Shown here: positions 3,409 to 59,009 of the stretch, in pieces
Numbering within the stretch: the stretch's first letter is position 1
How the letters are laid out: each line of letters starts with the position of its first letter
Assembly: GCA_041320515.1 (NCBI GenBank)
Contig: JBGLNR010000001.1
Span: forward strand, 578,405 to 642,404
Reading direction: 5' to 3'
Length of the DNA stretch: 64,000 nt
DNA from: Planctomycetota bacterium
Lineage (GTDB): Bacteria; Planctomycetota; PUPC01; DSUN01
Notes under the pieces: model-generated
Database searches by the model: none
What the model was told of the DNA's origin: nothing
Seen by the model: only the letters and a program-made list of their open reading frames with translations
Translations under genes and position numbers: made by a program

Positions 3409-5658
3409 ATGAGACTCAGCGTGTTGCTGGCGGCAGTTCTGCTGGCGAGCAGGGCCTGGGCGGCGGGGCTGCCCGTATCGGTGCCCATCGAGGGGATCAA
3501 GGAGCTGAACGCCGGGGCGTGGGGCGGCCCGGAGTTGGACGGGCAGCCCGCCTATCGCCTGGCGCTCAAGGGCAAGGATGCCTGGGTGCGCATTCCCGCC
3601 TGGTGGGGCGAGGGCGCTCGGCCACCACAGGGCGCACGCTATGTCGTCGAGGTCACGTTCAAGGATGTTGTGGAAGCCCCGATCGTTGCCGAGTCGTTCG
3701 GGGCGTTGGGCAGTTACTACGGCCGAAGCGAACTGCACCGCTTCGGGGGTGCGAACGACGGGCAGTGGAAGGTGGCTCAGGTGCCCGTGAGCTGGAACCT
3801 GCTGGTTGCGCCCAAGGGCACGAGGTCCGCCGAGCTTGCCTTCCGCGCGCCCGCCGACCTGCCCATTTCGCAGCTTGTCATCCGCGAGGCAAAGCTGCCC
3901 GAGGACCAGGCGCGTTACGAGGCCGAATCGCGGGCGTGGGTGGCGAAGGCCCAGGCGGCCAAGGCCACGGAGGCGGGGCAGATGAACGCCGACGAGACGG
4001 CCGTGGCGCCCGAGGGATACGTAGGGAGGGCCTTGGTGCCCTACGTCCGCGCCTACTACGACCGCATCTACCCGAACAGCGCGCCGCGCAAGGCGGAGGT
4101 CAGGGCGACCATCCACGTGCGCTTGGCCCGAAACGAGTTCGAGCCAGGCACCTTCGCCGTCTATGCCCAGGAGGATCTCAAGGGCGTGGACTTCGCGGTG
4201 TCGGAGCTGACTGGGCCGACGGGCACGCTGGCGTGCGAGATTCGCCGCCACACCATCGAGTACGCTCTGGAGCCGAAGGGGAAGGGCCTGGCCTGGGCGC
4301 CGCAGCGGCTCTGGCATGCATTCCCCGCGAGTATCAAGAAGGGGCAGTCGGCCTGGTTCTGGATAACCGTTCGCACCCTCGGCGAGGCGAGCCAGCCGGG
4401 GAAGTACCGCGGCAAAGTCATGATCGCCGCCGGGCAACAGACAGCCGAGTTGCCCATTCAGGTCGAGGTGCTGCCCATCACGCTCCTGACGATGGACGAG
4501 GCGGGGCTGCGGATGGGCGGCTGCGTGACCGGCCTCGCGACGGCAGGCGAGATGGCGACGATGCGCGAGCACAACCACAACATGGTCAACCTCTGGTTCG
4601 CAGGCGTCCAGCCCGAGATGAAGAAGGAGGGCGACCGAATCGTCCTCGACTTCCATTACCTCGACGACTGGATGAAGCTGGCCAGGGAGAACGGCCAGGG
4701 CGCCATCGTGTGGTTCCTCGGCGGCAACCCGAACGGCTTCCCGATGACCCTCTCGATGGAGCGCGACCTCTACGCCCTCGCCTGCGGCCCGCGAGACGAC
4801 TTCCTCAAGAAGGCCGGCTCCCAGGAGTTCCGCGGCAAGGTGCTGCCCGAGGTGCGGCCCCACTATGCACAGTGGCTCAAAGACGTGGTTGCGCACGCCA
4901 AGGAGAAGGGCTGGCCCGAGCTGATCTTCACCCCCTTCGACGAGCCGGCGAAGTGGGCCTATCCCGAGCCGCGGGCCGACAAGAGCTACAAGTTCGCCAT
5001 CGGCTGCGGCCCGTGGATTCGCGACCACTTCAAGGACGCTTGCGCCCTCATCCACGAGGCCGCGCCCGGCAGCAAGGTCTACGTCTCGATGCACCGCAAC
5101 TTCCACCGCAAGGTCCACGGGACCGACGGACGGGTCGGAGAGATCTTCATCCCCGACTGCGATGTCATCTGCACGAACGCGATTGACGAGGACAACGAAC
5201 TGGGGGACAAGGTGCGGAGCGCGGGCAAGGCATTCTGGCAGTACTCGGGCACCCGCAGCCGCCGATTCGGATTCGGCTTCTACTTCGGTGCCTGGGACTC
5301 CCGCGGCTCGCTCTGCTGGGCCTACAACTGGGGGCGGCGGTTCGACATCACGGAAGGCTCGAACTGGCAGTATGCCTGGTGCTCCCCCTTCGACACCATC
5401 CTCACGCCCGACTACGAGGAACTGCGCGAGGCCTGGGACGACCGCCGCTACATCGAGACCGCCAAGGCCGCGGCCAAGGCCGCGGGCAAGGACATCTCCG
5501 ACCTCCTCGCCCAGATACGCGCCGAGACCCTCGCCAACCAGGGCACGGGAGGCCGCGACCTCGTCAACGACTTCTGGGAGGAGGGCCGCCAGGCGAACAA
5601 GATGGACCAGTGGCGCGATCTGTTGGCGAAGAAGATCATTGAGCTGGCCCGCAGGTAG
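3409..5658 (+). CDS. secreted TIM-barrel protein, putative glycoside hydrolase (DUF4091-like)
   Basis: The long six-frame ORF (2773..5658) is antisense to the VOC gene at its 5' end. The true start is the ATG at 3409, followed by a signal peptide (MRLSVLLAAVLLASRAWAAG). The remainder is globular with many W/Y and a (beta/alpha)8-like pattern. Function is assigned by resemblance only. Confidence 0.6.
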   Translation: MRLSVLLAAVLLASRAWAAGLPVSVPIEGIKELNAGAWGGPELDGQPAYRLALKGKDAWVRIPAWWGEGARPPQGARYVVEVTFKDVVEAPIVAESFGALGSYYGRSELHRFGGANDGQWKVAQVPVSWNLLVAPKGTRSAELAFRAPADLPISQLVIREAKLPEDQARYEAESRAWVAKAQAAKATEAGQMNADETAVAPEGYVGRALVPYVRAYYDRIYPNSAPRKAEVRATIHVRLARNEFEPGTFAVYAQEDLKGVDFAVSELTGPTGTLACEIRRHTIEYALEPKGKGLAWAPQRLWHAFPASIKKGQSAWFWITVRTLGEASQPGKYRGKVMIAAGQQTAELPIQVEVLPITLLTMDEAGLRMGGCVTGLATAGEMATMREHNHNMVNLWFAGVQPEMKKEGDRIVLDFHYLDDWMKLARENGQGAIVWFLGGNPNGFPMTLSMERDLYALACGPRDDFLKKAGSQEFRGKVLPEVRPHYAQWLKDVVAHAKEKGWPELIFTPFDEPAKWAYPEPRADKSYKFAIGCGPWIRDHFKDACALIHEAAPGSKVYVSMHRNFHRKVHGTDGRVGEIFIPDCDVICTNAIDEDNELGDKVRSAGKAFWQYSGTRSRRFGFGFYFGAWDSRGSLCWAYNWGRRFDITEGSNWQYAWCSPFDTILTPDYEELREAWDDRRYIETAKAAAKAAGKDISDLLAQIRAETLANQGTGGRDLVNDFWEEGRQANKMDQWRDLLAKKIIELARR

Positions 5659-5667
5659 ACGGGTGTT

Positions 5668-5700
5668 GCAACTGGCCGTTGCGAGCGCTAGAATGAGGTA
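5668..5700 (+). promoter_or_regulatory. sigma70-like promoter TTGCAA-N17-TAGAAT with GTTGCAAC palindrome (candidate vapBC promoter/operator)
   Basis: TTGCAActggccgttgcgagcgcTAGAAT lies about 50 nt upstream of the antitoxin ATG. The -35 element sits in a perfect 8-bp palindrome, typical of TA autoregulation sites. Confidence 0.5.
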
Positions 5701-5748
5701 GAGGGAGGACGGCTAGGTGACTATGCGCCTCGGACGAAGGGATGGGGC

Positions 5749-26168: not shown

Positions 26169-26219
26169 GCCTCACCCGCCGTGATGGCTTGGGGGCATCT
26201 GCGCACAGAAGTCACGCTA

Positions 26220-26247
26220 ATTATATTCCTCTGCGCAAGCCTGTCAA
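26220..26247 (-). promoter_or_regulatory. consensus sigma70 promoter TTGACA-N16-TATAAT (minus strand)
   Basis: Reverse complement reads cTTGACAggcttgcgcagaggaaTATAATtagcg, about 45 nt upstream of the ATG at 26168. Confidence 0.7.
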
Positions 26248-26437
26248 GAACCCCGGCCCCGGCTCCCATCACCGGCCCAGCCGTGAGTTCACCCGCAGGC
26301 TGCCGCTAATGGCTAATGAAGATCTGGCCCCAATGGCGCCTAGAAGCCGCCGAGGCGTTTGAGTTCCTGGGGCTGTTCCTTGGGCTCCTGCGGGGGCGTG
26401 GACTTGGCCATGGCAGTTCCTCCTCGGGGTTTGTAGT

Positions 26438-26490
26438 GCGGGCTTCAGCCCGTAGGGGATACGGCCTGAGGGCCGCACTACAAGCACCAT
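26438..26490. repeat. REP-like hairpin (GTAGTGCGGGCTTCAGCCCGTAGGGGATACGGCCTGAGGGCCGCACTAC)
   Basis: Compact form of the REP family: about a 23-bp stem with a 4-nt loop. Confidence 0.85.
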
Positions 26491-26632
26491 TATGCGCTGG
26501 GCGGGGCGAGAGTCAAGGGGGGAGCAAGATGCGGCGGGCGCTTTTGGGCTTGACATGGGGGAGCGGGCGCTTTAGCATAGGGGTGCCCCCGCAGGTCCCC
26601 CCATAGGCCCCAACCAAGGCCCCGGTTGCGCC

Positions 26633-27169
26633 ATGGACAGCGTGCAGGCCATCATGGGCTCGGGCGGACTCGTCGTGCTCGACGACACCGATTGCATGGT
26701 GGACATCGCGCACTACTTCCTGGAGTTCACGCAGAACCAGTCGTGCGGCCGCTGCACCTTCTGCCGCATCGGCACGAAGCGCATGCTCGACGTCCTGGAG
26801 CGCCTCACCCGTGGCGAGGGGAAAAAGGGCGACATCGAGGAACTCGAGCACCTGGCCGCGATGGTGAAGAAGGGCAGCCTGTGCGGCCTGGGCAAGACCG
26901 CGCCCAATCCAGTGCTGACCACCATCCGCTACTTCCGCGACGAGTACGAGGCCCACATCGCCGGCCGCTGCCCCGCCGGCCGCTGCAAGGCGCTCATCAA
27001 GTACGTCGTCACCGACGACTGCATCGGCTGCACCCTCTGCGCCCAGCACTGCCCCGTCGAGGCCATCGCCATGAAGCCCTATGAGAAGCACGAGATTGAC
27101 GCGGCCAAGTGCATCCGCTGCGGCACGTGCAAGGCCCTCTGCCCCGTGGCCGCGATCAAGGTGGAGTGA
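26633..27169 (+). CDS. NuoF/HndC C-terminal-like protein fragment (NADH_4Fe-4S region plus two [4Fe-4S] ferredoxin motifs) lacking the FMN/NAD-binding N-terminal two thirds
   Basis: '…GSGGLVVLDDTDCMVDIAHYFLEFTQNQSCGRCTFCRIGT' matches the 51-kDa-subunit region just before and including the 4Fe-4S motif. Two CxxCxxCxxxCP motifs follow. No upstream coding sequence for the N-terminal domains is present. Confidence 0.6.
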   Translation: MDSVQAIMGSGGLVVLDDTDCMVDIAHYFLEFTQNQSCGRCTFCRIGTKRMLDVLERLTRGEGKKGDIEELEHLAAMVKKGSLCGLGKTAPNPVLTTIRYFRDEYEAHIAGRCPAGRCKALIKYVVTDDCIGCTLCAQHCPVEAIAMKPYEKHEIDAAKCIRCGTCKALCPVAAIKVE

Positions 27170-27171
27170 AT

Positions 27172-27207
27172 GATCCGTCTGATCCGTCGGATCCGTCTGA
27201 TCTGTCC
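27172..27207. repeat. tandem 9-mer repeat (GATCCGTCT GATCCGTCG GATCCGTCT GATCTGTCC)
   Basis: Starts immediately after the stop of the NuoF-like ORF and lies 22 nt before the next ATG. Same family as 1376..1411. Confidence 0.8.
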
Positions 27208-27229: not shown

Positions 27230-28915
27230 ATGCCCAAGCTGACGATTGACAACCGCCCGGTCGAGGTCCCCCCCGGCGCCACCGTGCTCGATGCCGCGCG
27301 CGCGCTCGGCATCGAGATCCCCACCCTCTGCCACCTCGACGGCTTCGAGCATTCCACCTCGTGCTTCGTCTGCGTCGTCAAGCTCAAGGGCAAACCCGGC
27401 CTCGTGCCCTCGTGCGCCACCGTCGCCACCGAGGGCATGGAGGTCGAGAGCGAGAGCGACGAGGTCCGCGACGCCCGGAAGATGGCCCTCGAGCTGCTCC
27501 TGAGCGACCACCTGGGCGACTGCATCGGCCCCTGCCACGCCGTGTGCCCCGCGCACATGAACATCCCGCTCATGATCCGCCAGATCGCCGCGGGCCGCCT
27601 CCGCGACGCGGTCGTCACGGTCAAGGAACACATCCCGCTGCCGTCGGTGCTCGGCCGCATCTGCCCGGCCCCGTGCGAGAAGGGCTGCCGCCGCGGCCAG
27701 CACGACGCGCCGCTCTCCATTTGCCTTCTGAAGCGGTTCGTCGGCGACGCCGACCTCGCCGCGCCCGAGCCGTGGTTGCCCGAACGCAAAGCCAGCACGG
27801 GCAAGCGCGTGGCCATCATCGGCGCTGGGCCGGCCGGCCTCTCCGCCGCCTGGTATCTGCTCCAGGACGGCCACGCGGTGACGCTCCACGATGACCACGA
27901 GAAGCCAGGCGGCATGCTCCAGTACGCCGTGCCGGAGGACAGGCTGCCGCGCGCCGCCCTCGACGCCGAGATCGCCCTCATCGCCCGCCTCGGGGCCGAG
28001 CTGCGCCTCGGCAAGCGGGTGGAGAGCGTCGCCGAGCTTCAGGGCGCCTTCGATGCCATTCTGGTCGCGGCGGGCGAGTTGCGGCCCGGCGACGCCGCCC
28101 GCCTCGGCCTGCCCGCCTCGAAGACTGGCGTCGAGGCCGACCGAGAGACCCTTGCCACGCCGATCGCCGGCGTCTTCGCCGCGGGCGGCGCCATCCGTTC
28201 CCAGAAGATGGCCGTCCGCTCCGTCGCCGAGGGCAAGTCCGCCGCCGCCTCGATTCATGCCTTTCTCTCCGCCTCTTGTCACGCGTCACGCGTCACGCGT
28301 CACGACTTCTCCATCCACATTGGGAAGTTGAGAGAAGGTGAGATGCCCGCCTTCCTCGCCGAGGCGAGCGCCGGCCCCCGCATCGAGCCTGCCGGCGGGG
28401 CGCCCGCCGGCTTCGCCGAGGCCGAGGCGCGCGAAGAGGCCCTCCGCTGCCTCCACTGCGACTGCCGCAAGCCCGGCGCGTGTCGCCTGCGCTGCTGGGC
28501 CGGCGCGCTCGACGCCAGCCCCAGCCGCTTCAAGGGCGAGCGCCGTTCCTTCGTCCAGCACCGGGCAGAGGCCAGAGGGCAGACGGCAGACGGCAGAGGG
28601 CAGAGGGCAGAGGGCAGTCCTGATGCCTTCGCGGCGTCGGCCGCGGCCGACGCTCTTCGTCTGCCATCTGTCATCTGCCATCTGCCGTCTGTGATCTACG
28701 AACCAGGCAAGTGCATCCGCTGCGGCCTGTGCATTCAGCTTTGCGCCAGGGCGAAGGAGGAGCTTGGCCTCACCTTTGTTGGCCGCGGCTTCGACGTCGT
28801 CGTGGGCGTGCCCTTCGAGCGCTCGCTCGCCGAGGGCCTGCGCAAAGTCGCTGCCGAGTGCGCCGCCGCCTGCCCCACCGGCGCCCTCGCCCTCCGCCAG
28901 GGCGAAGACCCCTGA
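27230..28915 (+). CDS. iron-sulfur flavoprotein oxidoreductase: N-terminal 2Fe-2S ferredoxin domain, GltD/NfnB-like FAD/NAD(P)-binding domain, C-terminal 4Fe-4S domain
   Basis: Plant-type 2Fe-2S motif (…CHLDGFEHSTSCFVCVV…SC…). 'CPAPCEKGC' 4Fe-4S. 'VAIIGAGPAGLSAAWYL' dinucleotide fold. C-terminal 'CIRCGLCIQLC'. A low-complexity insert is encoded by heptamer repeats. Confidence 0.8.
   Translation: MPKLTIDNRPVEVPPGATVLDAARALGIEIPTLCHLDGFEHSTSCFVCVVKLKGKPGLVPSCATVATEGMEVESESDEVRDARKMALELLLSDHLGDCIGPCHAVCPAHMNIPLMIRQIAAGRLRDAVVTVKEHIPLPSVLGRICPAPCEKGCRRGQHDAPLSICLLKRFVGDADLAAPEPWLPERKASTGKRVAIIGAGPAGLSAAWYLLQDGHAVTLHDDHEKPGGMLQYAVPEDRLPRAALDAEIALIARLGAELRLGKRVESVAELQGAFDAILVAAGELRPGDAARLGLPASKTGVEADRETLATPIAGVFAAGGAIRSQKMAVRSVAEGKSAAASIHAFLSASCHASRVTRHDFSIHIGKLREGEMPAFLAEASAGPRIEPAGGAPAGFAEAEAREEALRCLHCDCRKPGACRLRCWAGALDASPSRFKGERRSFVQHRAEARGQTADGRGQRAEGSPDAFAASAAADALRLPSVICHLPSVIYEPGKCIRCGLCIQLCARAKEELGLTFVGRGFDVVVGVPFERSLAEGLRKVAAECAAACPTGALALRQGEDP
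28573..28697. repeat. in-frame heptamer tandem repeats (CAGAGGG/CAGACGG x6) followed about 40 nt later by their inverted complement (CATCTGC/CCGTCTG x5)
   Basis: Read directly. Encodes 'RGQTADGRGQRAEG…LRLPSVICHLPSVI'. A (TCACGCG)x4 run lies in the same gene at 28277..28306. Confidence 0.8.
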
Positions 28916-29032: not shown

Positions 29033-29257
29033 ATGGCAGGCGAGTTCTCGATTTCGGACGTGCTGAAGTTGCCAGTCGGCGAGCGGATCCGACTCGTCGA
29101 GGACATTTGGGACAGCATTGCGTCCGTCCCCGAGGCCGTCCCGCTCACCGATGCCCAGCGTCGAGAACTCGACCGCCGCATCGAGGCGTACCACCGCGAC
29201 CCTCGGGCCGGCTCCCCCTGGCCCCAGGTCCGCAAGCGCATCAGGGCAGCCAGATGA
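29033..29257 (+). CDS. addiction-module antitoxin (TIGR02574-like)
   Basis: '…LKLPVGERIRLVEDIWDSI…LTDAQRRELDRRIEAYHRDP' fits the family pattern. Its stop overlaps the toxin start (ATGA). Confidence 0.75.
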   Translation: MAGEFSISDVLKLPVGERIRLVEDIWDSIASVPEAVPLTDAQRRELDRRIEAYHRDPRAGSPWPQVRKRIRAAR

Positions 29258-29568
29258 GTCGCAGGCTCATCATCCGCCCCGAGGCCGAAGCCGACCTGCG
29301 CGAAGCCTACACCTGGTACGAGCAGCAGAGACCGGGGCTGGGAGAAGAGCTGCTCCGCGCAGTGGACGACTGCCTTGCCGCCGTTCGCCGCTACCCGATG
29401 ATGCACCCCATCGTCCACAGGGAGGCCCGCCGAGCGCTTTCCCGCCGTTTCCCCTACGGCGTCTTCTATCTCCTTGGCCCCACAACCATCGCAGTCATCG
29501 CCGTTCTCCACTCGAGCAGAGACCCCGAACAATGGCGGGCCCGCCTTGATGGCCCAGCAGCCCAGTAG
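29254..29568 (+). CDS. RelE/ParE-family toxin
   Basis: 104 aa. 'IIRPEAEADLREAYTWY' at the N-terminus and a C-terminal 'R…FPYGVFY' segment match the RelE/ParE fold. Confidence 0.75.
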   Translation: MSRRLIIRPEAEADLREAYTWYEQQRPGLGEELLRAVDDCLAAVRRYPMMHPIVHREARRALSRRFPYGVFYLLGPTTIAVIAVLHSSRDPEQWRARLDGPAAQ

Positions 29569-36300: not shown

Positions 36301-36914
36301 CTCTGCACATTCGGACGCTTTTCCGCGCGGCGGTGCCAGGCCGCAACTTACCCGTGCTCCACCAAAGCCCCGCCCCGCAGCCCCTACAGGCTGTGGCTGC
36401 CCGCGGACGCACCACAACCCGCTGAGTTTTCCCAGTCTTCCCAGTCTTCCCGGTTCTCGGTGAGGCCCCCTGCCCCCAGCAGGTTGTGGATGCCTCCAGG
36501 GCGAACCACAAATTGTTGACTCGGCAGACTCGGCAGAGTCGGCAGGTTCGTGCGCCCCCTGGGGTCAGGTCTTCAGTATCAGAACTCAGATCACGAATTG
36601 CGTGGAACGCCTGGAAAGTGCGATTCCGCAAGTCTATGCTGCATAAGAGCTTACGTTACCACTAACACCAGAAAAGGGGGCGGTCGTAGTTGCCAATCCC
36701 TCGCCCCACCGACGCGAGGTCGGTGGGGGCGGGGAAGTCCGGCGGGCCCGGGGTGGTTGCCCGCGTCCCCGGCTATCTGGTCCCCGCTGCCCTCTTCCTC
36801 CTGGCCTCAGCGAGTGGAGTGCCTGCCGCCTCGCGCGACCTTTCGTTGAGAAGGGACATGAAGCGCTCGCTCTGGCCCAGAGCGGCGGCCTCGCGGTCGA
36901 AGTCATCAGCCGGC

Positions 36915-46339: not shown

Positions 46340-46984
46340 GTCACCTCTTCTCCCCTCCCAGACGCACACACCCACGACCCACAAGCAGAAGCAGACCGCC
46401 CTCCGCGATCCTAACACTTTCCTGTGCCGGTTGCCATCGGAAATGCACGGGAGCCAGGCGGGCGGTCACAGCAGGTTCCAGATCAGCTCCGCCAGTTTTT
46501 CGGGGTCGTGGCGCAGGAGGTCCTGCTTTTCCCACAGGATGCGCTTGTGGTCGAGGTTCTCGACGAGGTCGTCGAGGATGATCTGGACGCGGTGGGCGCC
46601 GAGCTGGTCGTCTATGCGGACGAGTTCGGCCGCCTCGCCGTGGTAGCGCGCGAGGATGGCCATCCTCGGCCTGCCCCCCACCATCTCCATCACCGACAAG
46701 AGCGGCGTGGCCGGCATCGCCGCCTGGCTCGGCCTCGAACTCCGCGAGCAAGGCGTCCAGATCGCCAAGGACCACCCTGGCGTCATCGCCATCAAGGACT
46801 CCGTAGACGCCCAATTCGCCTCCGGCCGCCTCACCGCCATGTCCCGCGAAGAACTCCTCCTCCTCGCCCGCAAACACTTGCCCGAACACTTCGGCCAGTG
46901 AGCGCGCGCAGTCAAAGAGGGCAGAGGGCAGACGGCAGAGGGCAGAGGGGGAGGTCGAAGGAAAGAGCCGGCCCGCGGAACACG

Positions 46985-47065
46985 CGAGATGCCGCGAAAC
47001 GGAAGCGGCGGTAGGGCGTGCAAACCTGCACGCGGAACGCGAGACCCGAAACGCGAAACCGATTC
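46985..47065. repeat. GC-rich dispersed repeat (…CGGTAGGGCGTGCAAACCTGCACGCGGAACGCGAGACCCGAAACGCGAAACC…), inverted relative to copies at 49500..49680
   Basis: Its reverse complement matches GTTTCGCG…TTCCGCGTGCAGGTTTGCACGCCCTACCG found twice at 49530-49680. Contains a CGTGCA-ggtt-TGCACG hairpin. Confidence 0.8.
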
Positions 47066-47122
47066 CTCACGCCGAGGCAGCGGAGCCAGCAGAGAAGTCG
47101 GGTTCAACCGCGGATTACGCGG

Positions 47123-47260
47123 ATGGCCGCGGACAGGAACCACGCCGGCACTGCCGAGGTATGGGTCGTCGACCCCGCCTGGCGCACCGTCAGCATCTAT
47201 CGCTCTGCGAACGACATGCACACCCTCACCGAAGGGGATGAACTCGTCCCTCCCCTACCT
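47123..47260 (+). pseudogene. C-terminal fragment of a Uma2-family (DUF820) endonuclease
   Basis: 'AEVWVVDPAWRTVSIYRSANDMHTLTEGDEL' is the characteristic Uma2 C-terminus. No N-terminal portion is present, and the upstream ORF sequence is not protein-like. Confidence 0.5.
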
Positions 47261-49030
47261 CAGAGCTTGTGTGACGCGGTACAGCGCAATGCTATCTCCT
47301 TCCCTCTCCGTGGCCAAGTACTCCAGCACGCCGTCGGAGCGGAACACAGGACCGCAGGCGACCTCATGGAAGTTTGGCCCTGGCTGGTGATCGAGGACCA
47401 CAAGCTGCCTAGTCACCTTCCTTGCCCCATATGCGACATGGCGCCCGTCGGCACTTAGCGTGAGGGTGCCTTCGCCGATCGCGTCATGCGGCGGCCCTGG
47501 CCGACCATCCACAACGACAAGTTGTTTGTTGCCCTTCCCGGCAGAATACGTCAGGTGTTGGCTGTCGAGACTGAACATTGGCCCGGCCTTGGCGATTGCC
47601 TCGAACTCCGGCCCGGATTGGCCATCCACAACCACGAACTGCTTGTGGCCTGCAATTGCCCCGTACGCTACGCGGTGCCCGTCTGGGCTGAAAACGAAGG
47701 TACCTACTCCGTCGTATTCGGGGCCTGCCTGGCCATCCACGACCACGAGCTGCTTCCCTCCACGCAAGGCCACATATGCCACGCGCCCGATCGCGCTGAA
47801 CGCAGGGAAGCCTTTCGCGATCTCGTCATACTCCGGCCCTGGCTGGCCGTTGACCACCACAAGCGCCCTGTCGCCTTTCCTGGCCGCGTATGCCACATGG
47901 CGGCCATCGGCACTCAGCACAGGGGAACCCGTCGCAATCCCATCCCAACCTGGTCCGGGTTGGCCATCCACCACGACATGCCACTCCTCTCCCTTCTTGG
48001 CTGCGTACGCCACGTGGCGACCGTCAGCACTAACGGTAACCCCAGCAACAACGTCGCAAGGCGACTCGGGACGGCCATCTACCACAACGACCGCCTCCCC
48101 ACCATGGCTGGCTGTGTACACTATGCGGTGGCCATCCGCACTGAAAACTGGCTCGCCTTTGCGAATGCCGTCGTATTCCGCCCCTTCCCTGCCATCAACG
48201 ACCACAAGCCACTTCGCGCCCCTCCTGACTACATATGCCACACGCTTGCCATGCGCACTGAGCACAGGGGACCCTTGAGCCATCCCATCGTACACCGGCC
48301 CTGGCTTGCCATCAGCAACCACGAGCCACTCCCCACCCTTGCTTGCCGCATACGCCACGCAGCCGCCGTCGCTACTGAAGACGGGACTGCCTTGCCCAAT
48401 GGCGTCGTACTTGGGCCCGGGCTCACCATCCACGACCACAAGGCGGGCCATCCCTAAGGTGGCCAAGTTCTCCCTAAAGGCAACGTATGCCACATGCCGA
48501 CCATCTGGAGAGAAAACGGGGCCGCCTACGCCAATGTTGTCGTACTCAGGCCCGGGCCGGCCATCCACAACGACGAGGACCTTCTCACCCCTCCTCGCCA
48601 CATATGCCACGCGTCGGCCGTCGGGAGAGAGAACGAGGTCGCCCTCGGGAATCCCGTCATACTCCGGGCCTGGCCGGCCATCGAGAACAACGAGTCGCTT
48701 CTCGCCGCGCTGCACCACCGCAGCGATCCGGCAACCATTTGAGGTCGCCGACCTGACGACCCGAATAGGCTCCGCAGGAAGCAAGCCCAGCCGCTGTTTC
48801 CGGATGGGCGCGCAGGAGACACCCACCCCAGCCACTGCCGCGCCATCGGGTGTGCCATCCGGCCGGCTGTTCTTGCCCTCGTCTGTTGCCGGTGATCTGC
48901 ATGTTCGGGCAAGAATGGCCACCGTGGCCAGGGCCAGGCAGAACGCCCCAATGATAGGAACCAACAGCCTGCGGTCACCTGGGTGTAACACTACTCTGTT
49001 CTTCCTCATCGCAAGACGATCCGGCCGCAT
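47255..49030 (-). CDS. membrane-anchored beta-propeller protein with ~12 PD40/TolB-like repeats
   Basis: 591 aa. N-terminal TM segment (LLVPIIGAFCLALATVAILA), then a reiterated ~45-aa unit 'LVVVDGQPGPEYDGI..GSPVFSPDGRHVAYAA.KG'. Confidence 0.8.
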   Translation of the reverse strand: MRPDRLAMRKNRVVLHPGDRRLLVPIIGAFCLALATVAILARTCRSPATDEGKNSRPDGTPDGAAVAGVGVSCAPIRKQRLGLLPAEPIRVVRSATSNGCRIAAVVQRGEKRLVVLDGRPGPEYDGIPEGDLVLSPDGRRVAYVARRGEKVLVVVDGRPGPEYDNIGVGGPVFSPDGRHVAYVAFRENLATLGMARLVVVDGEPGPKYDAIGQGSPVFSSDGGCVAYAASKGGEWLVVADGKPGPVYDGMAQGSPVLSAHGKRVAYVVRRGAKWLVVVDGREGAEYDGIRKGEPVFSADGHRIVYTASHGGEAVVVVDGRPESPCDVVAGVTVSADGRHVAYAAKKGEEWHVVVDGQPGPGWDGIATGSPVLSADGRHVAYAARKGDRALVVVNGQPGPEYDEIAKGFPAFSAIGRVAYVALRGGKQLVVVDGQAGPEYDGVGTFVFSPDGHRVAYGAIAGHKQFVVVDGQSGPEFEAIAKAGPMFSLDSQHLTYSAGKGNKQLVVVDGRPGPPHDAIGEGTLTLSADGRHVAYGARKVTRQLVVLDHQPGPNFHEVACGPVFRSDGVLEYLATEREGDSIALYRVTQALR

Positions 49031-49499: not shown

Positions 49500-49680
49500 A
49501 GCGTAGGGACGAGAGGTGTTTCGGGTTTCGCGTGGTTTCGCATGTTCCGCGGGCGGTTCCGCGTGCAGGTTTGCACGCCCTACCGGCTGCGTGAGGAAGA
49601 GGGTTCCGCGTTGTTTCGCGTGTTCCGCGGGCGGTTCGGCGTGCAGGTTTGCACGCCCTACCGGTTCCGCCATCCGTGCC
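49500..49680. repeat. two direct copies of the GC-rich repeat (GTGTTCCGCGGGCGGTTCCGCGTGCAGGTTTGCACGCCCTACCGG), plus CATCCGTGS x3
   Basis: Read directly. Inverted with respect to the copy at 46985..47065. Together they bracket the beta-propeller gene. Confidence 0.8.
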
Positions 49681-49819
49681 CATCCGTGGCATCCGTGGTC
49701 AGGCCCATCTTCTCTGCTGCCTCTCTCTGGCCCTCTCTGCGTGCTCTGCGTGAGGAATCCCGTTCCGGGTTCCGCGTGGTTCGCGGGCATGAGATCGGGC
49801 GCGCAGGCGAAGGGAGACG

Positions 49820-57143: not shown

Positions 57144-57189
57144 ATTCGATTCACTCGATTGATTCGATTGATTCGACGGATTCGACGGA
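57144..57189. repeat. tandem 9-mer repeat (TCGATTCAC TCGATTGAT TCGATTGAT TCGACGGAT TCGACGGAT), reverse-complement orientation of the GATCCGTCN family
   Basis: Lies directly upstream of the purB-fragment start codon (57128). Contains GANTC and GATC cores. Confidence 0.8.
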
Positions 57190-57194
57190 TCGTA

Positions 57195-58318: not shown

Positions 58319-58981
58319 ATGGTGCAACTTGAGGAAGTCACGAAGCTCTATCGCGGCCCTCAGGGCGAGGTCCGCGCCCTCGACTGCGTGAGCCTTCGCG
58401 TCGCCGAGGGCGAGTTCATCGCCGTCAGGGGCGCCAGCGGCAGCGGCAAGTCCACCCTCCTGCTCACCCTCGGCGCGATGGTCAGGCCGACGAGGGGCCG
58501 CGTGACCGTGGCCGGCTCGGATGTCTACGCCCTATCGCCGGGCGAGCGGGCGCGGTTCCGGGCCGAGAACATCGGCTTCGTCTTCCAGCTCTTCCACCTC
58601 ATTCCCTACCTGAGCGTGCTGGAGAACGTCCTGGTGCCGACCCTGGCGGCCCGAGGGCGCGAGCGGCCATCGGCGCCGGCGCTCCTGGAGCGCTACGGCC
58701 TGGGCCACCGCATCCACCACCGGCCGGCCGAGCTGAGCATCGGCGAGCGCCAGCGCGTGGCCATGGCCCGCGCCCTGCTCAACCAGCCCAGGCTCATCCT
58801 GGCCGACGAGCCGACCGGCAACCTCGACCCCGCCAACGCGACCGAGGTGATGAACCACCTGGCCGACCTCCACCGCTCGGGAACCACCATCGTGGTCGTG
58901 ACCCACGAGGAGTTGGCCGCGCGCTACGCGCAACGCACCGTGGAGATCCGCGAGGGGCGCATCGTGACGCGTGACCCGTGA
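58319..58981 (+). CDS. ABC transporter ATP-binding protein (LolD/FtsE/MacB-type)
   Basis: Walker A 'GASGSGKST'. Signature 'LSIGERQRVAMARAL'. Walker B 'ILADEPTGNLD'. H-loop. No cognate permease gene is adjacent. Confidence 0.85.
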   Translation: MVQLEEVTKLYRGPQGEVRALDCVSLRVAEGEFIAVRGASGSGKSTLLLTLGAMVRPTRGRVTVAGSDVYALSPGERARFRAENIGFVFQLFHLIPYLSVLENVLVPTLAARGRERPSAPALLERYGLGHRIHHRPAELSIGERQRVAMARALLNQPRLILADEPTGNLDPANATEVMNHLADLHRSGTTIVVVTHEELAARYAQRTVEIREGRIVTRDP

Positions 58982-59009
58982 CGCGTGACTGGAAAGGAGA
59001 AGAGGGAGC

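Follow-up and report, generated by a model that had tools for sequence, protein, structure and literature searches.

Heptanucleotides are the most abundant long simple repeats in many bacteria, where they form dispersed, unit-specific families (PMC4692102, PMC4679880). In Xanthomonas, such repeats include convergent inverted pairs, and 7-11% of the copies are intragenic (PMC4692102, PMC4679880). Palindromic elements inserted in frame are known from Rickettsia, according to a later summary (PMC10969869) of the work of Ogata et al. (2000, 2002). Here we describe three tandem heptanucleotide arrays, two of them opposed as the arms of a hairpin, inside the gene for an iron-sulfur (Fe-S) flavoprotein of a Planctomycetota bacterium (GenBank assembly GCA_041320515.1, contig JBGLNR010000001.1, positions 578,405 to 642,404). 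This 64-kb stretch, hereafter the window, is the only part of the source genome covered. The feature is reasonably likely to be a tolerated in-frame insertion of a hairpin-forming heptanucleotide simple-repeat element in a permissive, disordered connector of the protein, and on the best reading the element does not switch the gene on and off.

Arrays, hairpin and host gene

Tandem arrays were called with Tandem Repeats Finder (TRF), and chance expectations were taken from dinucleotide-preserving shuffles. All three arrays are in frame within a single open reading frame (ORF), at codons 350-358 and 445-488 of 561 (Table 1). With two mismatches or fewer, GGCAGASGGCAGASGGCAG was matched 8 times against 0.02 expected, and GTCACGCGTCACGCGTCACG was matched 4 times against 0.00 expected; an origin of the arrays by chance is excluded. 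A sequence-only reading of this DNA had placed (TCACGCG)x4 at 28277-28306 and (CAGAGGG/CAGACGG)x6 at 28573-28617 in frame in an Fe-S flavoprotein gene, with an inverted partner array about 40 nt downstream, and had proposed that the last two can pair. The first array proved to be perfect, with 3.9 copies; the second is real, while its extent had been underestimated (TRF gives 7.9 copies, starting at 28563); and the partner array follows after a gap of 42 nt, inside the same ORF. The pairing was also recovered: nucleotides 28555-28705 fold as a single long hairpin, both as RNA (-87.2 kcal/mol, z -5.4) and as DNA (-48.5 kcal/mol, z -5.8). The inverted arms (28580-28611 and 28660-28691) are 32 nt each and 88% complementary, and a perfect 20-nt palindrome, GCGTCGGCCGCGGCCGACGC, is nested in the apical spacer at 28634-28653. 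At the protein level, HASRVTRH from array 1 is the linker that follows the flavin domain, and peptides predicted from the insert include GQTADGR and LPSVICHLPSVIYEPGK. A G-quadruplex was considered and set aside as a conserved feature: in the window three GGG tracts follow one another and the others are distant, and the related insert described below consists mostly of CGGCAGA units.

Table 1. Coordinates of the host gene, its arrays and related heptamer arrays in the window.
Feature	Position	Strand	Description	Basis
Host gene	27230-28915	+	predicted NfnA/StnA-like Fe-S flavoprotein, 561 aa	ORF, Pfam, Foldseek
Array 1	28278-28304	+	(GTCACGC)x3.9, 100% match, encodes HASRVTRH	TRF
Whole insert	28565-28694	+	130 nt	five-way DNA alignment, protein alignments
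Left arm	28563-28617	+	(GGGCAGA/CGGCAGA)x7.9, 91% match, encodes AEARGQTADGRGQRAEG	TRF, repeat families
Apical spacer	28618-28659	+	42 nt between arrays	sequence, fold
Right arm	28660-28691	+	inverted partner, (TCTGCCA)x4.6, 88% match, encodes LPSVICHLPSV	TRF
Intergenic array	46916-46949	+	(AGAGGGC)x4.9 = (GGCAGAG/GGCAGAC)x4.9	TRF
Degenerate run	49700-49752	+	CTCTGC-type, inverse of GGCAGAG family, within second composite-repeat copy	
GTCACGC-family array	58963-58989	-	+ strand reads (GTGACGC)x3.9	TRF

Pfam assigns Fer2_4, Fer4_20 and Pyr_redox_2 domains to the protein, plus a C-terminal CxxCxxC...CP 4Fe-4S motif, which gives a layout of an N-terminal 2Fe-2S domain, a GltD-like FAD/NAD module and a C-terminal 4Fe-4S domain. 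The top Foldseek matches of the structure model (query-normalised TM-score 0.79-0.84) are 9bov_A, 8oh5_C and 9n5u_A, the A subunits of electron-bifurcating NfnABC/StnABC transhydrogenases, and the gene product is predicted from the model to be a cytoplasmic, NfnA/StnA-like redox subunit. Homologs number thousands, most of them about 520 aa long, and the nearest come from Planctomycetota metagenome bins. The gene is under purifying selection, with dN/dS of 0.18-0.25 in every pairwise comparison (four orthologs).

The AlphaFold model was built with 117 orthologs (an earlier run with 19 sequences was uninformative over the C-terminal third) and has a mean pLDDT of 91.3 and a pTM of 0.88. Residues 449-483, which belong to the insert, are the sole segment with a pLDDT below 50; the array 1 block lies at about 66. 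The connector before the C-terminal 4Fe-4S domain has about 8 residues in the solved homologs 9bov_A and 8oh5_C vs 46 in the window. The position of the insert thus fits the fold, being a low-confidence loop in the model and a short connector in the solved structures.

The insert is absent from most orthologs. A five-way DNA alignment set the window and one other filled allele, on contig L001 (encoding P0004; 83% protein identity, synonymous divergence dS ~0.44), against the empty alleles of the set L124, L125, L126 and L127. Where the empty alleles have the 16 nt CAGCACGGCCTGATCC, the window has 130 nt, which makes its gene 114 nt, or 38 codons, longer. The three closest orthologs (87-88% identical) lack the hairpin, and so do all distant orthologs; at the protein level, the window and P0004 are filled and P0001-3 and P0005-8 are empty. 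The L001 insert has the same junctions as that of the window and the same arms, with 7 full left-arm and 5 right-arm units in both, and it lacks 33 nt of the apical spacer; the extra spacer sequence of the window holds the 20-nt palindrome. A near-invariant His, part of a QHP motif, is lost with the insert, and in both carriers the right arm supplies CHL(P/S)SVIY, so that a protein-level constraint on the right-arm peptide is possible. All five close orthologs have array 1, each with 4 units, and conserve its HASRVTRH linker. Its units have changed in concert in L125, which has (TCACGCA)x4 where the others have (TCACGCG), and in L126 the array is interrupted by a 66-nt insert that itself contains a hairpin. 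In annotation, inserts of this kind inflate protein length, and they can be misread as linkers between domains or as sites of frameshifting.

We give almost no credence to an assembly or sequencing artefact in a low-complexity region. A break in synteny 600 nt upstream of the gene means that the assembly is not beyond question. The same in-frame insert is nevertheless found in independent contigs from three samples of another lineage (the genes of L001, L002 and L003 are identical and represent three metagenome assemblies of one lake population), and array 1 is found in all five orthologs.

Origin and persistence of the insert

Insertions in this protein are concentrated at few places. In a survey of 121 orthologs for internal insertions of at least 8 residues, residues 446-450 ranked first, with insertions in 10 sequences, and the array 1 site had them in 3. 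At 446-450, L130 carries an unrelated perfect 28-nt palindrome at exactly this site, L131 and L132 an insert with 13-bp terminal inverted repeats, and L137, L156 and L162 further inserts, each with a short palindrome. Such repeated, unrelated inserts point to a permissive connector that collects the small structured repeats a genome makes.

From these comparisons we infer how the insert may have arisen and that it probably has no function. The planctomycete genomes of this clade carry tandem heptanucleotide families, mostly intergenic and in some cases in coding sequence, and a two-armed hairpin of 7 GGCAGAS units on the left and 5 TCTGCCN units on the right would have displaced the 16 nt before the C-terminal 4Fe-4S domain. 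Since the net gain is a multiple of three and the arms hold no in-frame stop, a full-length protein with a 38-residue disordered loop is made. Array 1 (GTCACGC x4) may go back to an earlier insertion of this type that has since become a fixed linker. Replication slippage, together with template switching within and between arms, most probably made the arrays and kept them uniform, selection may only remove the length variants that break the frame, and the element would persist as a passenger because the site is permissive.

The sequence-only reading had instead proposed a slipped-strand switch, that is, a phase-variable contingency locus in which 7-nt slippage reversibly switches off the C-terminal Fe-S domain. 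We consider this highly improbable. The arithmetic behind the proposal holds, as units of 7 nt are out of step with the codons, and adding or removing one unit in silico gave a product of 364-485 aa or a scrambled C terminus. Heptanucleotide repeats reportedly drive phase variation at the Haemophilus hmw promoters. The concerted changes within arrays ((TCACGCA)x4 in L125, and (ATTCCAG)4 vs (ATTTCCG)4 at a site described below) imply unit turnover, and they show that slippage or conversion acts over evolutionary time. The tracts themselves, however, are short: the longest perfect ones measure 27, 26 and 15 nt, i.e. 3.9, 3.7 and 2.1 units, all below four units. Unit number is also constant, at 7+5 in the window and L001 despite a dS of ~0.44, across three assemblies of one population, and at 4 for array 1 in five orthologs. 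The protein, a predicted cytoplasmic redox subunit under purifying selection, does not belong to the surface, host-interaction or restriction-modification classes, and the arrays lie mid-gene and near the 3' end, not in the promoter or the 5' coding region. Conservation of the encoded linker in orthologs, which the same reading had named as counter-evidence to its own proposal, was observed for array 1 and, in L001, for the hairpin.

Arrays of this type are, moreover, genome-wide and mostly intergenic. Of the seven period-7 arrays in the window, four are located either between genes or at a stop. Three related runs that had been reported at 46916-46950, 49700-49745 and 58963-58990 were all recovered (Table 1), the second as merely a degenerate CTCTGC stretch. 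The first begins 15 nt past a stop codon and forms the outer end of a composite repeat, and the third supplies the TGA (58979-58981) of an ABC ATPase ORF, 20 nt before the ATG of the next gene. A false lead is thereby removed, in that a genic 7-nt repeat alone is insufficient to call phase variation in an environmental bacterium.

Several results weigh against a tolerated insertion that entered once and has since been carried along. Only two filled alleles were found among the matches listed, and no second full-length hairpin copy was found in the 64-kb window, where array modules alone recur. Informative sites group the window with L001 (22 sites), the window with L124 (19) and L001 with L124 (18) in similar numbers, and neighbor-joining (NJ) bootstraps are below 50%, so that a single ancestral insertion is not proven. 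On these sequences, phylogeny cannot separate one ancestral insertion from two gains. The stem has also changed little: in a comparison of two sequences of one repetitive array, 4 of 62 paired columns differ between the window and L001, all four still pairing, vs 7 of 14 unpaired columns (Fisher p = 3.5e-4). A neutral passenger is expected to decay, yet something has held the stem, or its 6-nt core, intact. Structural selection, concerted evolution, quasi-palindrome template switching or a recent independent insertion could each cause this pattern.

A metagenome scan with the C-terminal 161 aa gave, among the matches listed, distant orthologs (65% identity or less) and no more filled alleles, and a protein search centred on the insert gave 12 short fragments, all without it. 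A look-up of the protein of the window itself found no record. Sliding-window identity showed no local excess of similarity to L001 near the insert, and hence no sign of recent recombination.

The conserved stem bears on a functional nucleic-acid element under host-level selection, acting in mRNA (by slowing ribosomes before the 4Fe-4S domain, or through stability or processing) or as a DNA structure, with the peptide incidental. Such an element is unlikely here. Stem columns evolve about 5x slower than synonymous sites (the synonymous divergence of the gene is 0.33), while the bulged 7th bases of the units vary freely. One of the four stem differences is a compensatory double change from G-C to A-U, and RNAalifold on the window and L001 gives 33 pairs, of which 1 is compensatory, 2 are wobble pairs and none is broken. 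Shuffled sequences fold far less well than either copy (z -5.4 in the window, -7.4 in L001), and unrelated hairpins occur at the same site in distant orthologs. Against this, most orthologs lack a hairpin at this site altogether, among them the three that are 87-88% identical. The comparison involves two sequences, and turnover of units alone can mimic a conserved core with diverged variable positions, as under concerted evolution the invariant core positions may merely look conserved. Rfam, tRNA, promoter and terminator scans gave no match for the hairpin and no promoter- or terminator-like site, and the His of CHLPSVIY may impose a constraint at the protein level.

In a related proposal, which we regard as doubtful, the opposed arrays are a discrete, actively maintained element whose stem is kept for an RNA- or DNA-level function or by a dedicated homogenising or insertion mechanism. 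Such a mechanism would rewrite heptamer arrays without a change of length, even inside reading frames. The conserved stem with its free 7th bases points in this direction, as do the arrays (ATTCCAG)4, (ATTTCCG)4 and a degenerate 4-unit version at orthologous sites. These sites are the 5' ends of a gene for an NHL lipoprotein, where four heptamer units lie in the signal-peptide n-region of L124 (2672-2702, (ATTCCAG)4.4), L126 (2864-2893, (ATTTCCG)4.3) and L125 (~2560-2590, the degenerate version) and differ between the three; from sequence, this appears to be length-preserving homogenisation within a reading frame. If active maintenance were true, it would offer a way to study how specific heptamer families came to be dispersed across bacterial phyla, for which there is no explanation so far. 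The conserved stem and the length-preserving homogenisation both bear on how heptamer families originate and persist, which is left unexplained in PMC4692102 and PMC4679880.

A discrete, site-specific mobile element, gained independently or by transfer at the same nucleotide in the window and L001, is improbable in our estimation. The spread of the insert is patchy (two proteins filled among those compared) and the NJ tree separates the carriers; the two inserts agree in their junctions and arm lengths; the near-uniform cores make the arrays look young; and the same heptamer-hairpin architecture is found between genes in an acidobacterium (L081). Support for that tree is below 50%, however, and the grouping of the window with L001 has the most informative sites. 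The DNA alignment shows no target-site duplication flanking the insert and the loss of 16 nt of the empty site. The arms do behave as inverted repeats, but without a target-site duplication the feature fails as a miniature inverted-repeat transposable element (MITE). There is no second full copy in 64 kb, the motif of the composite repeat described below was not found in the 206 loci compared, and no transposase was detected by Pfam in seven array-adjacent ORFs (those scanned encode PD40, DUF6602, toxin-antitoxin and Fe-S proteins). The tolerated insertion of a simple-repeat element remains the preferred reading, and the families to which its units belong are considered next.

Heptamer families and neighboring genes

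Period 7 is the commonest tandem-repeat class in these genomes. It includes 19 of the 53 arrays detected over 151 kb from the window and its close relatives; over 389 kb of loci picked solely for encoding an ortholog, its share is 18 of 39. Within the window, GGCAGAS units occur at 28563 and 46916 and their inverse at 28660 and ~49700, and GTCACGC units at 28278 and 58963. The same unit also recurs at non-orthologous places in relatives: GAGTGCG lies in the flavoprotein gene in L001 and in the NuoF-like gene in L125 and L126, and ATTCCAG is shared by the lipoprotein 5' end of L124 and the flavoprotein gene of L207, inside it and just upstream of its start. Across species-representative genomes, a scan for (GGCAGAS)3GGCAG found arrays of 4 to ~97 units at 120 loci or more in many phyla, among them cyanobacteria, Streptomyces, Gemmatimonadota, Acidobacteriota, Chloroflexota and Planctomycetota. 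In the acidobacterial locus L081, 7159-7253 is an intergenic hairpin of the same heptamer design. Some of these loci (L004-L123, e.g. L081, L017, L066 and L056) pair the array with an inverted one; other arrays are found at contig ends or within ORFs of great length in low-GC cyanobacteria. Avoidance of stop codons was tried as an explanation for which units are genic and rejected, as the units checked were mostly stop-free in all frames (hand translation, high-GC) and the property is not discriminating.

Relatives carry further in-frame arrays in the flavoprotein gene or its neighbors. L001 has (GAGTGCG)4.6 and (AATCAGC)4.6, and L207 (2689-2743 and 2193-2213) has (CCAGATT)5.9 and (ATCCGAA)2.3 in the Fer4_20 domain, with the inverse array just before the start codon. 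Heptamer arrays lie in the NuoF-like gene of L125 and L126, and candidates of the same kind, (CCAGCAT)5.6 arrays, lie at the upstream edge of the matched C-terminal region in L144 and L156, a position that places them probably inside the orthologous gene. Other repeats are fixed in frame as well. The NuoF-like gene of L001 contains six hairpin units of 63 nt in tandem (~5290-5730), and the flavoprotein gene of L208 contains a REPIN-like doublet (2083-2217) whose hairpins have the form CCCTCCCGCGGG...CCCGCGGGAGGG. In this planctomycete clade, heptanucleotide families and other hairpin repeats have repeatedly been fixed in frame in flexible connectors of two redox subunits of the electron-bifurcation type.

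Two inverted copies of a composite repeat of ~200 nt, at 46916-47133 and 49523-49772, flank a PD40 beta-propeller gene (47255-49030, - strand). Each is made up of heptamer arrays, 9-mer arrays and a 30-nt core, GTTCCGCGTGCAGGTTTGCACGCCCTACCG, that is a perfect match between the two, and in the right copy the core module is tandemly duplicated (49523-49591 and 49601-49669). A 22-nt motif of the core, GTGCAGGTTTGCACGCCCTACC, was not found in 206 loci. Tandem arrays of 9 nt, apparently intergenic, occur at 27171-27206, 36425-36451, 36518-36545, 49669-49697 and 57144-57190 (TGATCCGTC, AGTCTTCCC, GACTCGGCA, CCATCCGTG, ATTCGATTG/GATTCGACG), the first of them in the gap that separates the stop codon of a truncated NuoF-like gene from the flavoprotein start codon.

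That truncated gene (26170-27169) encodes only the C-terminal 179 aa, with NADH_4Fe-4S and two 4Fe-4S domains, of the NuoE/F-like partner that has 797-930 aa in all relatives. Homology to the relatives begins abruptly at ~26630-26648, about 600 nt upstream of the flavoprotein gene, and the upstream synteny of the relatives (FtsX, PQQ, NHL and Fer4 genes) is absent from the window; the break may be either a rearrangement that truncated the partner subunit or an assembly join. A non-coding 57-nt hairpin (26429-26485, stem TTTGTAGTGCGGG...CCGCACTACAAG) lies ~150 nt before the break, with -45.2 kcal/mol over 86 nt (z -4.2), and has no Rfam or tRNA match. Directly 3' of the flavoprotein gene is a toxin-antitoxin pair (29033-29568; Unstab_antitox antitoxin and ParE-like toxin), where relatives instead have a prenyltransferase or amino-acid kinase gene. 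With different neighbors upstream and downstream, the context of the flavoprotein gene differs on both sides here.

Comparison with described repeat systems

Contingency loci of Haemophilus and Neisseria are similar in that a genic unit is not divisible by three and one-unit changes shift the frame. They differ from the present locus, which belongs to an environmental organism, encodes a protein that is not of the surface type and has short, imperfect tracts with a constant unit number in the sequences compared. Repetitive extragenic palindromic (REP) and REPIN elements and MITEs share with the insert an imperfect hairpin with nested palindromes; a REPIN-like doublet stands in frame in the same protein of L208, and composite hairpin repeats flank a gene of the window. 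Here, in contrast, the insert lacks a target-site duplication, the seven ORFs scanned include no linked RAYT or transposase, and the arms are tandem arrays.

The heptanucleotide families (cyanobacterial STRR, Xanthomonas GGGAATC, Nostoc GGGGAYT and Beggiatoaceae TAACTGA) are closer. They likewise consist of tandem 7-nt units, with a few specific units dispersed over many loci of a genome, mostly intergenic or at gene ends with a minority in ORFs, and their convergent inverted pairs can form hairpins. As here, the unit is G-rich with some quadruplex potential, and heptamers are the dominant short-tandem class. The differences are that the present host is a high-GC planctomycete and that the opposed arrays form one compact 130-nt hairpin in frame in a conserved enzyme. 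Array length in Xanthomonas varied widely between related species, whereas unit number and stem were kept here at a dS of ~0.44.

The Rickettsia palindromic elements (RPE), as far as they are covered by the summary cited above, resemble the insert in being palindromes of ~100-150 nt, in frame in a housekeeping gene and absent from orthologs, which add a peptide where the fold can accommodate it and recur in several genes of a clade. The two have no sequence relation, and an RPE is a unique palindrome whereas the arms here are arrays of 7-nt units; no conserved peptide family encoded by the insert was seen, and in the data compared its array modules recur and full-length copies do not. By analogy, the best-supported placement is that the feature belongs to the known heptamer-repeat phenomenon and appears to behave like the protein-coding palindromes of Rickettsia.

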